From positions 1 through 36,628 of the IMG/VR virus record IMGVR_UViG_3300020050_011359: a DNA stretch of 36,628 bases; one strand, given 5' to 3'. A program made the translations under genes and the position numbers. The notes beneath the pieces are model-generated. The model had not been told where the DNA came from, ran no database searches, and saw only the letters and a program-made list of their open reading frames with translations. Of the stretch, positions 15,771 through 36,628 are shown one piece after another. Position 1 is the stretch's first letter; the number at the start of each line of letters is the position of its first letter. This DNA is from a virus.

Positions 15771-15820
15771 TGCTTAGGATTGATTATACTAGCTATAAAA
15801 CAATATTCTAATATCAAAGA

Positions 15821-16110
15821 CAATAATAGTATAATAGTACAATAATAGTACTTTTTCTCTGCTGGTAAAAAAACGTCTCAAACACTGTTTTAAAACATGT
15901 AAGTTATTAATATATATATAATATTATATATAAATATATATTATAATAAAATAATAATAGTATAATAGTACAATAGTACCATAGAGCACTTCCCTTTTAG
16001 AACCGAGGGTAAAGAAAGTGCTCTATGATACTATTGTACTATTATACTATAATTAATGAATCCAATGGGTTACAACGTTTTTTTGTACTATTATTGTACT
16101 ATTATTGTAC
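15821..16110. repeat. Origin-like block: ATAATAGTAC iterons in both orientations, a 56-nt pure A/T tract and a 35-bp-arm inverted repeat
   Basis: Forward 10-mers start at 15823, 15831, 15842, 15954, 15962 and 15970. Reverse copies (GTACTATTAT) start at 16028, 16036, 16085 and 16096. 15831..15851 is the exact reverse complement of 16085..16105. 15904..15959 is A/T only. 15957..15991 pairs with 16016..16050 (34/35). Confidence 0.6.
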
Positions 16111-20356: not shown

Positions 20357-20369
20357 TTGATTGAAACCC

Positions 20370-20402
20370 GTGTTAGCCGAGCGGGGACGATTCGGCTATT
20401 TA
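20370..20402 (+). promoter_or_regulatory. Conserved intergenic motif, copy 1 (GTGTTAGCCGAGC-N9-TCGGC-TATTTA)
   Basis: The 13-mer gtgttagccgagc (20370..20382) recurs at 24469, and with 1 mismatch at 24369. The dyad is tagccga/tcggcta. TTAGCC and TATTTA are spaced like -35/-10 elements. It lies 14 nt after the HNH stop. Confidence 0.45.
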
Positions 20403-20403
20403 T

Positions 20404-20489
20404 GAGCGAGCGACTATGCGCGATAAGGGCTATATATGTTTATAGTTTTTGGACGGCCAGTAACCAATCTGGCCTCGCTCTCTTTTTTT
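20404..20489 (+). ncRNA. Candidate structured small RNA (cloverleaf-like, about 77 nt, plus U-tract)
   Basis: A 7-bp closing stem, gagcgag (20404..20410) with ctcgctc (20474..20480). Internal hairpins are tat/ata, ctata/tatag (20430..20445) and ggccag/ctggcc (20455..20474). These are followed by tc+TTTTTTT (20483..20489). Confidence 0.35.
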
Positions 20490-20505
20490 ATTTGAGGAAA
20501 TAATT

Positions 20506-22062: not shown

Positions 22063-23187
22063 ATGAAAAAAATTGAGACACTAACGGAAGAGCAAAAAGC
22101 AAAATTTCCAGAATATGTAAATAAGTGGATCAGTATTGGATTAAGCACTGAAAACCCTAGTAAGGAAGTTGCACAAAATTCAATTATAAAAGTTTATGAA
22201 TCAGCAGGGGTGCCCGCCCCAAAAACTTTTATTTGGGTTGAATCCCCTCTACATGCAGGAGTTTGTTATGCTTTATTAAAAGATAATAAGTTGGCTTCTG
22301 TCGGGGCTTCTCTCAGGGCTTCTGTCTGGGATTCTGTCTGGGATTCTGTCTGGGATTCTGTCGGGGCTTCTGTCAGGGATTCTGTCTGGGATTCTGTCGG
22401 GGCTTCTGTCGGGGCTTCTGTCTGGGATTCTGTCTGGGATTCTGTCGGGGCTTCTGTCGCGGATTCTGTCAGGGATTCTGTCAGGGCTTCTGTCGGGGAT
22501 TCTGTCAGGGATTCTGTCAGGGATTCTGTCTGGGCTTCTGTCTGGGATTCTGTCGGGGATTCTCTCAGGGATTCTTGCTATGGATCTCATGATGCTAATT
22601 GGCTTGCATTTTACAAGTATATGCATGACGAATTAAATGTTGATTGCTCTAAGCTTAATGGATTATGGGAAGCGGCAGAAAATTGTGGTTGGTTTATTCC
22701 TTTTGAAAATATTGTAATCATTTCTCCAAAACCTTATCAAATTAAAACAAAACTAAACGATAGAGGGCACCATATTTTACATGCTGATGGCGAGCCTGCT
22801 GTTTTTTATTGTAATGATTTTAAAATTTATTCTCGTGAAGGAATTAGAATTCCTGAAAAGTATGGCTCTGTTAAGGCAGAAGACTGGAAAGCGGAATGGT
22901 TCATTGAAGAAACTAACGTAGAAATCAAAAGATTAATAGCTGAAGCTATTGGATATGAGAAATTATTTGATGCTTTAAATGCAAAGGAAATTTCTCAACA
23001 TAGAGAATATAAATTATACAGAGCCGAAAATGTCGACGTAGAACCAATGCATATACTTACAATGATATGTCCTTCTACTAAGAAAATACATTACGGGAGA
23101 GTGCCTCCGACAATAACAAGCGCAAGAGAGGCAGCAACCTGGAGAAACCAAGGCATTGAGCCTGAAAGTTTTATGGTGGAACAATAA
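22063..23187 (+). CDS. Tetrapeptide-repeat protein, 374 aa: N-domain, 24 x [A/D]-S-[V/L]-[W/G/R/A] repeats, then a ~200-aa C-domain
   Basis: The ORF contains the 288-nt tandem repeat. The C-terminal domain (DANWLAFYKY...GEPAVFY...VPPTITSAREAATW) resembles a widespread bacterial/phage family of unknown function that I recall but cannot verify here. Confidence 0.7.
   Translation: MKKIETLTEEQKAKFPEYVNKWISIGLSTENPSKEVAQNSIIKVYESAGVPAPKTFIWVESPLHAGVCYALLKDNKLASVGASLRASVWDSVWDSVWDSVGASVRDSVWDSVGASVGASVWDSVWDSVGASVADSVRDSVRASVGDSVRDSVRDSVWASVWDSVGDSLRDSCYGSHDANWLAFYKYMHDELNVDCSKLNGLWEAAENCGWFIPFENIVIISPKPYQIKTKLNDRGHHILHADGEPAVFYCNDFKIYSREGIRIPEKYGSVKAEDWKAEWFIEETNVEIKRLIAEAIGYEKLFDALNAKEISQHREYKLYRAENVDVEPMHILTMICPSTKKIHYGRVPPTITSAREAATWRNQGIEPESFMVEQ
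22294..22581 (+). repeat. In-frame tandem repeat, 24 units of 12 nt (consensus GMTTCTGTCNGG)
   Basis: Read directly: gcttctgtcggg / gattctgtctgg / gattctgtcaggg-type units follow back to back. They encode ASVG ASLR ASVW DSVW DSVW DSVG ... DSLR DSCY. Confidence 0.95.
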
Positions 23188-24329: not shown

Positions 24330-24368
24330 TTTTTCAGCGGGACCTTACAGACCTGGGTTCACCATAAT

Positions 24369-24403
24369 GTGTTTGCCGAGCATTGCTGATTCGGCTTTAT
24401 TTT
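24369..24403 (+). promoter_or_regulatory. Conserved intergenic motif, copy 2 (GTGTTTGCCGAGC-N9-TCGGC-TTTATTTT)
   Basis: gtgtttgccgagc (24369..24381). The dyad is gccga (24375..24379) with tcggc (24391..24395). TTGCCG, 17 nt, then TTTATT. It lies 40 nt after the upstream stop and exactly 100 bp before copy 3. Confidence 0.45.
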
Positions 24404-24468
24404 AAAATAGTTGCAATTAATGACCCTGAAAGTGTGGTGGAATAAAAACACAAGATAGTTTTGAAGAG

Positions 24469-24500
24469 GTGTTAGCCGAGCCTTTACATCGGCATTATAT
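24469..24500 (+). promoter_or_regulatory. Conserved intergenic motif, copy 3 (GTGTTAGCCGAGC-N7-TCGGC-ATTATAT)
   Basis: gtgttagccgagc (24469..24481). The dyad is gccga/tcggc (24489..24493). TTAGCC, 17 nt, then TTATAT (24495..24500). It ends 1 nt before the tRNA-like gene. Confidence 0.45.
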
Positions 24501-24501
24501 G

Positions 24502-24572
24502 GGGGAGTTAGCAAAGTGGTAAATGTCGGAGATAACATCTTTAAGTCGTTGGTTCGATTCCAACACTTCCCC
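24502..24572 (+). tRNA. tRNA-like gene with a shortened anticodon arm (possible degenerate tRNA; AAC in the anticodon position)
   Basis: Acceptor ggggagt/acttccc (7 bp, one G-U), U8, D-arm gcaa-agtggtaa-atgt with GG, T-arm gttgg-ttcgatt-ccaac, and a 5-nt variable loop. The anticodon arm is only 15 nt: either a 6-bp stem with triloop AAC, or a 4-bp stem with loop aUAACAu. No CCA is encoded. Confidence 0.45.
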
Positions 24573-24616
24573 ACGTTTAAGAAGAACAGAAATAAACAGA
24601 ATAAAGAAGGTGAGTG

Positions 24617-26861: not shown

Positions 26862-27221
26862 GTGAAAAAAATAAGTGAATCATCTGAGCAAATGGCTTTT
26901 TTTCATTGGGTACGCATTCAAGGCTGTACGGATGAGCGTTTTAAAACAATATTTGCAATAAGCAACGGAATGCATAGTTCTGCAAAGGCTGGATTCAGGG
27001 CAAAACGTGAGGGTCTCAGGCGTGGCGTTAGCGACGTATTCGTTCCCATCGCATCACGAGGCTATCACGGCCTATTCATCGAGTTTAAAATTAAGCCCAA
27101 CAAACTAAGCGAAAAGCAAGAAGAGTTTTTTAAACGTGTACATGGTCAAGGATTTGCGTGTAGAATTGCCTGGAGCGCGGATGATGGCATCAATATTTTA
27201 AAGGAATATTTGGGATTATGA
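26862..27221 (+). CDS. VRR-NUC domain nuclease, 119 aa
   Basis: The pattern SEQMAFFHWV...FAISNG...GLRRGVSDVFV...GLFIEFK...KLSEKQEEF...G matches the VRR-NUC (PD-(D/E)xK) signature. GTG start at 26862. Confidence 0.65.
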   Translation: MKKISESSEQMAFFHWVRIQGCTDERFKTIFAISNGMHSSAKAGFRAKREGLRRGVSDVFVPIASRGYHGLFIEFKIKPNKLSEKQEEFFKRVHGQGFACRIAWSADDGINILKEYLGL

Positions 27222-28345
27222 AATATTTATTTGTTCTCGTATTTTTTATAACGTCACTAAGTAGTGCTCAAACTCGAAAATCTTACGATGCTCTTGGTTT
27301 AGCAATGTATTGCAATGAGTATTTAAAAGCTCCACAATTAGAAGGTATCAGCACTCTTTTGAACACCTTTGGGGATCCATTGCCATGCATAGAAAAGAGA
27401 ATTGCTAAAGGCAATTTAAAATTTGCACAAATAGATTTAATTGATGCGACATGTTGGAGAAATAAAACATGTGCTCCAGGAGTCCCAAAACCAACAGACT
27501 TTAAGGCTATCGAATCACGAGCAAGAAAGGTTTATCAATACCAACAAAAATATCCGAATATAGAATGGTGGGTATCTCCTGCCCTTGAATACGATGAAAA
27601 ATCTTCAAGTGCAGTTTTAAAAATGATGCAGGCTGCTCAAAAAGGTTGCCCACCTTGCAAGGTTATTCAATCTCCTTTTTCTGGCGCAACTGTTCCAGGG
27701 TATCCAATTGAAAAACATGGAACAAAAGTAAGAGCATTTTCTGTTAGTGGAGATGGTGCAAGTATTTTTGATGCTGATAATATTAAATCAGATGGTAATG
27801 GATTTGAGCATAATAAATCTGGAAGTGACCAAACTCATGCATGGTTTAATGAACTAAACTTAAGATGTACAGGAGAGAAAACATCAACTCCACCACTAAA
27901 GAGAACTGAGAAACCAACAGGAGCATTGTTCAAGCAAGCTTTTATTAACATGCAAGATGAGCCAAAAATCCCATCAGCTCCTAAAGTTTGCAAAGAAGTA
28001 AAAGCATTTAAAGATAAAGAAATAAATAAACCAAACGCTGAAAGCTATTGCAACGGTCAAACAAAAGATGTTCGAGGGAATAAGCCCATGTTGATTTTAA
28101 AAAGAAGAGGCAACCCAGGCGAAAGACTCCCTCTTTATAATTCAAACGGTGCTAAAGTTGGATGTTATAAATATTATGGAGAATATTCAGAAAAAGGATA
28201 TTATAGGTATTATGAAGGCGATTGCTCAGGGCTTAATCCTGTTGAGCTAATGGAAAAGCTTGGTAGTGAATACGGCTTTTTGGATACAGGTAAGGGAAGA
28301 TGCCAACTGATAAATGCTGTGAGAAGATTGGGAGTTTATAGATGA
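27218..28345 (+). CDS. Secreted Cys-rich protein, 375 aa, function unknown
   Basis: The N-terminus MKYLFVLVFFITSLSSA-QT is a Sec signal peptide. There are 12 Cys in the mature part. ATGA overlap with the VRR-NUC gene. No catalytic motif was confidently recognised. Confidence 0.65.
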   Translation: MKYLFVLVFFITSLSSAQTRKSYDALGLAMYCNEYLKAPQLEGISTLLNTFGDPLPCIEKRIAKGNLKFAQIDLIDATCWRNKTCAPGVPKPTDFKAIESRARKVYQYQQKYPNIEWWVSPALEYDEKSSSAVLKMMQAAQKGCPPCKVIQSPFSGATVPGYPIEKHGTKVRAFSVSGDGASIFDADNIKSDGNGFEHNKSGSDQTHAWFNELNLRCTGEKTSTPPLKRTEKPTGALFKQAFINMQDEPKIPSAPKVCKEVKAFKDKEINKPNAESYCNGQTKDVRGNKPMLILKRRGNPGERLPLYNSNGAKVGCYKYYGEYSEKGYYRYYEGDCSGLNPVELMEKLGSEYGFLDTGKGRCQLINAVRRLGVYR

Positions 28346-35853: not shown

Positions 35854-36628
35854 TAGTAACTCCAACCTCCCAAAGTAGCCGGTCTAAATCGTGGCCCCCA
35901 TGTTCCATATCTTGTCAAACTTCCTCTATTAGTCCCCTTCCATCTGTTAACCGACTGTTCAATTCTTGATAAAAATTCATTCACGAAATCTGCATAACCA
36001 TCATATCTTTTGACCTCGTACCATCTCGCCTTAAGTCCAAGAATTACTAAGTCATCATCAAACATGCATAAGTCTGTATTTGCTAACATTGTTTCATATG
36101 GTTCATCGTAAAGTGTCCAGGTAACTGTACCATCAACTCCCGCCCCTGTTGGTGGTGTTGTTGAGGTTGTTCCGCCTGCAGTTGTAAAAAGATTTACGCC
36201 GTTTACATTTCTATATGAAGATGCAGCAATAACAGTTGATGGTGTCCAGTTAGGTGGTAAGAAAAGATTTTTAGTAATGTATTGATACGTTCCAATTTGG
36301 TCTTTTGGTAATGCAGGATTAACATTAAATTGTCCGCCTGCAGTATTTGGATTTGCATCACTACCAAATATTCTAAATGCTGTAATATAGCTGCTCGATG
36401 CAATCACATTCAATCTATACGCAAAATCTGCGTCACTTCCATTATAAAGTGGAAGGTGAGTTGTTGAATTATATTCAGTATCAAGAAGTGGTGAATAGAA
36501 ATCTTTCGGCAATGGATACGATGTTCTTGAGCTAGAAGTTGACGTAAATTGATACGTTTTCTTTTGTTGTGGAAAACACCTAGCTTGTCTTAATTCTTCG
36601 CATACTTGGATAAGTAAATGTTTTACTT
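35853..36628 (-). CDS. 3' part (C-terminal ~258 aa) of the wrap-around 293-aa virion gene; the 5' end is at 227..122 across the junction
   Basis: See feature 1..227. The frame is open to the window end. The track's TTG at 36512 is internal. Confidence 0.7.
   Translation of the reverse strand, partial: VKHLLIQVCEELRQARCFPQQKKTYQFTSTSSSRTSYPLPKDFYSPLLDTEYNSTTHLPLYNGSDADFAYRLNVIASSSYITAFRIFGSDANPNTAGGQFNVNPALPKDQIGTYQYITKNLFLPPNWTPSTVIAASSYRNVNGVNLFTTAGGTTSTTPPTGAGVDGTVTWTLYDEPYETMLANTDLCMFDDDLVILGLKARWYEVKRYDGYADFVNEFLSRIEQSVNRWKGTNRGSLTRYGTWGPRFRPATLGGWSY
36508..36628. repeat. Terminal direct repeat, right copy (identical to 1..121)
   Basis: 121/121 identity, read directly. Confidence 0.95.

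Follow-up and report, generated by a model that had tools for sequence, protein, structure and literature searches.

A short RNA motif lies between genes in the early region of an uncultured phage genome, and one of its copies ends exactly where a tRNA-type gene with a shortened anticodon arm begins. The reading that we favour, to which we give about an even chance, is that of an intercistronic RNA motif followed by a recently captured, rearranged tRNA passenger that would be read through, processed, and probably non-decoding. The motif is an RNA element absent from Rfam and the more novel part of the locus.

The window (the whole stretch of 36,628 nt that was analysed) represents a phage-like genome, complete at 36,507 bp, with 37.6% G+C and a 121-bp terminal overlap. 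Positions 1–121 and 36508–36628 form an exact repeat, which is either a direct terminal repeat or a circular-assembly overlap, i.e., the genome is complete. Portal, terminase, major head, and tail genes occupy the minus-strand arm, and the plus-strand early arm encodes AAA_24, DUF669, endonuclease, DUF6745, HTH, and VRR-NUC proteins. Scanning ORFs of at least 180 aa against PHROGs or Pfam revealed neither an integrase nor an RNA polymerase gene. The same phage was present in four JGI metagenomes at 99.7–99.8% identity, and no cultured close relatives were detected by blastn and megablast against INPHARED.

Other features of the genome were recorded along the way. The DUF6745 gene contains about 23 tandem copies of a 12-nt unit (22233–22635); its copy number is polymorphic, as the product is 374 aa long in the window and 430 aa long in contig L002, which is otherwise 99.7% identical. 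Short AT-rich direct repeats (AATAGTATAATAGTACAATA…) with an 8-nt phase lie at 15817–15986, in the large divergent intergenic region between the arms, and could be an origin or promoter region. A Cys-rich protein of 375 aa (27218–28345) without a Pfam or PHROG match is a widespread phage family, with more than 120 homologs (46–62% identity) in phage contigs of 30–60 kb. The early regions around these homologs are mosaic, and no tRNA was detected within ±10 kb of them in 18 loci. The 167-aa protein encoded downstream of the tRNA-type gene is almost without homologs. Contig L006 is not syntenic.

Structure and distribution of the RNA motif

The motif is about 36–40 nt long and consists of a stem of 3–8 bp (S1) closing an 11-nt loop, UGUUWGCCGAG, followed by a linker of 3–14 nt, the pentamer UCGGC, and a 7-nt A/U-rich tail. 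In the window, the 13-mer GTGTTWGCCGAGC (…TCGGC copies) starts at 20370, 24369, and 24469, in all cases on the plus strand. The pattern GCCGA-N(5–15)-TCGGC occurred three times against 0.09 expected, and none of 100 shuffles reached three. The first-pass annotation, made from the sequence alone, had placed two copies exactly 100 bp apart (GTGTTTGCCGAGC starting at 24369 and GTGTTAGCCGAGC starting at 24469) in the largest non-coding gap of the early arm. Both positions hold, as does the gap, which measures 287 nt between the 113-aa and 167-aa genes according to the JGI gene calls and is the largest of the plus-strand arm. The 100-bp spacing, to which the annotation had drawn attention, is without support as a meaningful feature and is incidental: relatives have a single copy. 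The plus-strand copy at 20370 is the third in the window and is listed here as copy 1.

Motif copy 1: 20367–20403, plus strand; S1 CCCG (20367–20370) pairs with CGGG (20382–20385); loop 20371–20381; UCGGC 20392–20396; tail UAUUUAU 20397–20403
Structured RNA after copy 1: 20404–20490, plus strand; 77-nt four-way junction with closing stem GAGCGA/UCGCUC, then a U7 terminator run
Motif copy 2: 24365–24403, plus strand; S1 UAAUG (24365–24369) pairs with CAUUG (24381–24385); loop UGUUUGCCGAG 24370–24380; then linker; UCGGC 24391–24395; tail UUUAUUUU 24396–24403
Motif copy 3: 24465–24500, plus strand; S1 AGAGG (24465–24469) pairs with CCUUU (24481–24485); loop UGUUAGCCGAG 24470–24480; linker ACA; UCGGC 24489–24493; tail AUUAUAU 24494–24500

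The UCGGC of copy 2 is complementary to GCCGA in its loop (24375–24379), and its tail UUUAUUUU is terminator-like.

The pattern (N)GUUWGCCGAG…UCGGC was collected from scans of IMG/VR, JGI metagenomes, and genome collections and from loci reached via proteins, which gave 53 distinct instances on phage contigs not otherwise related to one another. Immediately 5' and 3' of the conserved 11-mer, the flanking bases pair with each other, and their sequence is variable: examples are CCCG/CGGG, AAUG/CAUU, AGAGG/CCUUU, ACCG/CGGU, CUAG/CUAG, CACG/CGUG, UGCG/CGCA, GAUAC/GUAUC, and UUCUCGUG/CGCGAGGA. In a gap-free alignment, 69.8% of the S1 positions formed standard pairs, compared to 48.6 ± 2.5 in shuffles (0 of 500 reached the observed value) and 27–41% in slid controls. 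The S1 covariation score was 0.571 against 0.21, and permuting the 5' flanks among instances never reproduced the observed S1 pairing in 5000 trials. Within the stems, seven G.U pairs were found against one A.C, and this excess fits RNA in the orientation of the genes.

The GCCGA of the loop is complementary to the downstream UCGGC, and the two, taken with S1, either have their strands ordered as in an H-type pseudoknot or make up a pair of alternative hairpins. The GCCGA/UCGGC pairing is invariant and so gains no covariation support; the motif core was fixed by the search patterns, which partly imposed the invariance of both the loop and UCGGC/GCCGA. A search for diverged copies with compensatory GCCGA/UCGGC changes found only the variant in L030.

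Comparison with sequence collections gave little beyond the phages themselves. Searching Rfam 15 around the three motif copies produced no match at E ≤ 5 or E ≤ 10. No protein family was shared by more than four of the 33 motif-bearing loci, which leaves no candidate partner protein. The genome-collection scan returned 118 matches spread over all phyla, mostly coding or chance, with no host signal, and the motif was not enriched in bacterial genomes. A full-text literature search for the motif sequence returned primer matches only.

Genomic context of the motif

Context was evaluated for the 34 instances with an S1 of at least 3 bp. An ORF ended no more than 80 nt upstream in 26 of them (median, 15.5 nt after the stop codon), and a ribosome-binding site with a start codon followed within 80 nt downstream in 15 (median, 22 nt). 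The ribosome-binding site of the next gene usually lay about 15 nt after the motif tail. Tails with at least five U in 7 nt were counted in 27 of the 34.

Three phage lineages with tRNA arrays also have the motif, 7–18 nt before tRNA-His:

L276: motif 2742–2767; tRNA-His 2771–2845
L298: motif 2087–2112; tRNA-His 2116–2189
L288 (same contig as L270): motif 2568–2598; tRNA-His 2612–2687

In a fourth lineage (L306/L286), it directly precedes a tRNA-Ser, which is followed by tRNA-His. In the window as in L276 and L298, the G that pairs with C73 comes at a distance of exactly 7 nt from UCGGC, and the structured RNA after copy 1 begins at the same distance, directly 3' of the tail. That RNA (20404–20490) is cloverleaf-shaped with a fold z-score of −3.9; covariance models detected no tRNA or other Rfam signal in it, and no homolog was found in the fetched loci. 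Structured RNAs or ribosome-binding sites therefore repeatedly start at the junction where the tail ends. BLAST did not detect the arrangement of motif and tRNA-His in cultured phages.

The tRNA-array phages bearing the motif had further RNA genes. GOLLD RNA was detected in L298 (293.9 bits), and tmRNA genes in both L298 and L276; the GOLLD and tmRNA regions are 510–929 and 4096–4483 in L298 and 1303–1794 in L276. Another odd tRNA in a motif-bearing phage is an 85-nt Leu-like class-II tRNA in L306 (966–1050; in L286, 516–601 on the minus strand), which ARAGORN called 'Val(aac)', which scored 40.3 bits with Rfam, and whose anticodon region is irregular.

The first-pass annotation had read the motif as a promoter firing into the tRNA. 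In such a case, transcription from the G right after the tail would yield a leaderless tRNA, sRNA, or mRNA, and several observations are compatible with it: structured RNAs and tRNAs start with G exactly 7 nt after UCGGC in copies 1 and 3, L276, and L298, the ribosome-binding sites of downstream genes begin right after the tail, and no other promoter is visible nearby. We nevertheless consider a phage promoter very unlikely. The distance between the conserved loop and UCGGC ranges from 3 to 19 nt, so the motif is not a two-box promoter; a sigma-70 promoter has two hexamers at a fixed distance of 16–18 nt, whereas the distance between the conserved halves here varies by 16 nt. A promoter scan found no sigma-70-type site on the plus strand at 24330–24500 or 20357–20403. 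S1 covaries as RNA and tolerates G.U pairs, and a U-rich tail after a GC stem resembles a terminator. With the stop codon at a median of 15.5 nt before the motif and the start codon at 22 nt after it, there is no room for a transcription start and a leader. Nor did the ORF scan or the comparison of motif-bearing loci supply an RNA polymerase gene or a common protein family. A hairpin promoter of the N4 type was considered as well and rejected: the 36.5-kb genome has no virion RNA polymerase, and the loop is too large.

Like an intrinsic terminator, the motif stands just behind a gene and has a GC stem with a U-rich tail after it. The 5-bp GCCGA/UCGGC stem and the U-rich tails fit this type, but the loop measures 7–19 nt, and a 5-bp stem with a large loop makes a weak terminator. 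Copies 1 and 3 have poor U-tracts (five and four U in the tail, respectively), and a terminator scan of the window did not list the motif sites. Antitermination hairpins (lambda boxB/nut and RAT of the BglG/SacY type) share with the motif a variable stem with a conserved loop and a loop that overlaps the 5' half of a terminator-like stem. The motif differs from both terminators and antiterminators in its predicted pseudoknot topology, in the next ribosome-binding site lying no more than about 10 nt further on, and in having no Rfam match. The preQ1-I riboswitch, an H-type pseudoknot, is similar in its length of ~35 nt, its order of stem 1, loop, and stem 2, and its site just upstream of a ribosome-binding site. 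However, the conserved nucleotides of the motif are different, several copies occur per phage before unrelated genes and tRNAs, and nothing ties it to a metabolic pathway.

The interpretation with the best support is a terminator-type or structural RNA signal between cistrons and not a promoter. The motif would act as an intergenic signal within the early-operon transcript, where it most likely forms a leaky structure, of the terminator type or bound by a factor, at which an expression module ends.

Anatomy and decoding potential of the tRNA-type gene

The tRNA-type gene is the only tRNA of the 36.5-kb genome and is composed as follows:

tRNA-type gene: 24501–24573, plus strand; from ARAGORN, Rfam RF00005, and fold prediction
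Acceptor stem: 24502–24508 with 24565–24571
U8: 24509
D arm: 24511–24526
Anticodon arm: 24528–24542 (15 nt), with AAC at 24534–24536
Variable loop: 24543–24547
T arm: 24548–24564

The first-pass annotation had described a 71-nt tRNA-shaped sequence (24502–24572) one nucleotide (G24501) after copy 3, and the Rfam tRNA model (RF00005) matched it end to end, with 44.4 bits against a gathering score of 29 (E = 2e-6). This score is low but within the range of the 33 tRNAs from other fetched phage loci (38–77 bits). Every core element that it had listed is there (U8, A14, G18G19, the T arm GTTGG-TTCGATT-CCAAC, and a variable loop of 5 nt), and the acceptor stem, the R15–Y48 pair, and the T loop UUCRANY are canonical too. 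CCA is not encoded; C24572 is followed by ACG. G24501 pairs with C24572, an interaction overlooked in the annotation that extends the acceptor helix to 8 bp. This helix is either of the His type, with G-1:C73, or an 8-bp stem with A24573 as the discriminator.

The anticodon arm measures 15 nt and not the canonical 17 (5-bp stem and 7-nt loop), and standard tools called a tRNA only via the non-standard folds that had been described from the sequence. ARAGORN reported tRNA-Val(AAC) at 24501–24574 using the second of these, in which a stem of C.A, G.U, G.U, A-U, and G-C carries the loop AUAACAU. The other, a 6-bp stem with an AAC triloop, is the minimum-free-energy fold. In the Rfam alignment, the arm forms a 5-bp stem, GGAGA/UCUUU, with a 5-nt loop. 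Assembly error was rejected as a source of the short arm: four samples gave five independent assemblies, and these agree in every base of the 296-nt intergenic region. As the contigs are 99.7–99.8% alike (2–3 differences per kb), the identity of the tRNA copies is uninformative on selection. BLAST of the tRNA alone against INPHARED gave generic T-arm matches only, the best being a tRNA-Trp, and the exact 25-mer of the T arm and acceptor was absent from IMG/VR.

Active tRNAs have a 5-bp anticodon stem and a 7-nt loop, and the known exceptions are longer, not shorter (PMC7609411). Since a 15-nt anticodon arm falls outside every known active tRNA design, the tRNA most probably no longer decodes. 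The rest of the molecule shows no defect, and U33 and A37 are in place when the loop is folded with 7 nt; this also fits a working molecule. We compared the gene with the identity sets of valine (A35, C36, A73, G20, and G45, the first two being the main determinants) and histidine (G-1, C73, and GUG; for microhelices, the G-1:C73 pair by itself is enough for histidine acceptance) (PMC9976931). Of the valine set, A35 and C36 require the 7-nt-loop fold, A73 requires an 8-bp stem on which A24573 is the discriminator, and positions 20 and 45 are U and A. For histidine, the G-1:C73 pair is present (G24501:C24572) and the GUG anticodon is absent, as the loop has AAC.

A working, non-canonical tRNA-Val(AAC) that reads GUU, and also GUC and GUA if A34 were deaminated, is in our view somewhat unlikely. 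It would follow the ARAGORN fold, i.e., a normal 17-nt arm with a C27.A43 mismatch, a missing position 26, and a 4-nt variable loop, and the additional base pair in the acceptor may compensate for the other arm being shorter. ARAGORN calls a tRNA in this fold, which has U33, A37, and an A32-U38 pair; the nucleotides of the tertiary core are all intact; and GTT, at 271 of 533 valine codons (220 of 404 in late genes), is the one that the phage uses most. Valine identity depends mainly on A35 and C36 (PMC9976931), and A24573 would serve as A73 in this register. On the other hand, a 4-bp anticodon stem or the lack of position 26 is not known from any active tRNA (PMC7609411). The absence of G20 and G45 also weighs against it, as does the lowest-energy fold, which hides the anticodon in a triloop. 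The gene is, moreover, dispensable in a sister strain and absent from relatives (see below). Apart from Arg(ACG), tRNAs with A34 are uncommon in bacteria, which further counts against tRNA-Val.

The His-type acceptor end raises a different possibility, a deliberate tRNA mimic that does not decode. Such an RNA would be chargeable by HisRS or bound by tRNA-targeting defence or processing enzymes, acting as a decoy, sink, or processing handle. G24501:C24572 is present, and G-1:C73 suffices for histidine acceptance on microhelices (PMC9976931). In L276 and L298, tRNA-His comes after the motif and its 7-nt tail, in L288 it lies 18 nt downstream of the motif, and copy 1 likewise precedes a structured RNA that is not a tRNA. 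We consider the mimic unlikely all the same: a G-C pair at that position is expected by chance once in 16, the gene resembles the tRNA-His genes of L276, L298, and L288 in generic tRNA features only, and it is not conserved outside one near-clonal lineage. A decoy for anticodon nucleases should also have retained the loop that they attack, and AAC is not a known target.

Decidedly improbable, in our estimation, is a hybrid tRNA that joins a His-type acceptor end to a Val anticodon with compensating arm lengths, the motif being an undescribed, widespread phage pseudoknot that acts as a boundary and is read by a factor. One acceptor base pair more would make up for one anticodon-arm layer less, and the motif could be a sequence-specific terminator, antiterminator, or processing site at which tRNAs, small RNAs, and mRNAs begin. 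If this were true, GUU could be miscoded as His, or HisRS or a defence enzyme could be titrated.

Known tRNAs provide partial parallels. The gene resembles phage tRNAs, including those annotated as 'tRNA-OTHER' or pseudo, as an early-region cloverleaf gene that scores above the Rfam threshold and is sporadic among relatives; it has the T arm and acceptor in common with the 'tRNA-OTHER' of Polaribacter phage Danklef. It differs from phage tRNAs in its 15-nt anticodon arm, 8-bp acceptor helix, and A34 anticodon, and in being the sole tRNA of its genome. With bacterial tRNA-His it shares an encoded G-1 that pairs with C73 in an 8-bp helix, and with three phage tRNA-His lineages the upstream motif, but the anticodon is AAC and not GUG, and there is no specific sequence similarity. 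An acceptor helix of more than 7 bp and an acceptor identity that may mismatch the anticodon are also known from tRNA-Sec (8/5), allo-tRNAs (8/4 and 9/3), and tRNA-Pyl (PMC5389517, PMC7609411). These have longer, 6-bp anticodon stems and usually long variable arms, whereas the tRNA of the window has a shorter anticodon arm and a 5-nt variable loop.

History and significance of the locus

Relatives of the locus were traced via the 113-aa gene upstream and its homologs. In L295, L316, L317/L318, and L326–L329, a single copy-3 ortholog of nearly the same sequence (…GAGG UGUUAGCCGAG CCUUUACN UCGGC AUUAU…) follows the stop codon of that gene within ~10 nt. It is directly followed by a ribosome-binding site and a protein gene in L295, L317/L318, and L326–L329, and the L316 contig ends just after it. 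No motif was found after the homolog of the 113-aa gene in L319–L325. None of the seven related locus types carried a tRNA at this site; only one near-clonal lineage has it.

In the window, the intact 113-aa gene is followed by copy 2, which is different from copy 3. Between the two copies lies the following remnant:

Gene-end remnant: 24450–24464, plus strand; ACAAGATAG and a spacer, 3' end of a second copy of the 113-aa gene

In relatives, ACAAGATAG has its homolog in the gene end just before the copy-3 ortholog, and in the window it marks a scar left by recombination. The tRNA starts exactly where the ribosome-binding site starts in L326 (directly after …UCGGCAUUAUAU). Together, the relatives without tRNA, the gene-end remnant, and the L326 junction indicate that the duplicated motif and the tRNA are a lineage-specific mosaic insertion.

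A sister strain, L315, is 99.5% identical to the window from 24544, in the variable loop, onward. Its upstream part instead contains the ORF of a DUF559-type endonuclease, the end of which overlaps the 5' two-thirds of another tRNA (GUACUUG-UA-UCCG…CGGU-CCUGC-CUUUUAA-GCAGG) with a canonical 17-nt anticodon arm and anticodon Lys(UUU). The result is a chimera whose 5' acceptor strand does not pair with the retained 3' strand. The endonuclease ORF (L315 1–267; DUF559-type, Vsr-like) stops at the UAA in the tRNA anticodon loop and is probably a mobile endonuclease linked to the tRNA chimera. The chimera indicates that tRNA genes at this site recombine and that the tRNA of the window can be lost in nature. 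The first-pass annotation had taken an intact 17-nt arm at this locus as a sign of simple decay; such an arm is present in L315, but it is not homologous to that of the window. As for the two origins it had proposed, a decaying tRNA or a deliberate mimic, the relatives without tRNA and the L315 chimera lean towards a rearranged, dispensable acquisition.

L315 shares only the 3' third of the tRNA with the window, as is typical of the cores of tRNA-targeting integration. That the locus is an attP site, or the remnant of integration into a host tRNA gene, is nonetheless extremely unlikely. The ORFs scanned (at least 180 aa; PHROGs or Pfam) included no integrase, the tRNA is complete with matching acceptor strands in a circularly closed phage genome, and the 5' side of L315 consists of an endonuclease ORF and the 5' part of another tRNA, not host DNA.

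We read the tRNA as recently captured, recombination-scarred, and dispensable. The tRNA-type gene would have been inserted in the lineage of the window exactly at the end of the copy 3 tail, and it would be transcribed by read-through from upstream; no sigma-70-type promoter was found on the plus strand here. RNase P and 3'-end enzymes would then release an RNA of ~72 nt, thereby also cutting the early mRNA. Such processing is expected from the intact acceptor/T-arm helix and D/T-loop core and from the known minimal substrate requirements of these enzymes.

If the tRNA is only a relic, the locus still documents tRNA insertion and recombination at a defined RNA-element boundary in phage early operons, with a clean insertion and a chimeric tRNA both captured in near-identical strains. 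If it is active, it would be the first tRNA with a shortened anticodon arm. The motif may matter more than its passenger: it is a short, strongly covarying RNA structure, absent from Rfam, that dozens of uncultured phages with no other relationship have in common and that repeatedly stands immediately before tRNA-His genes, and it could be a new form of gene-expression punctuation in phages.
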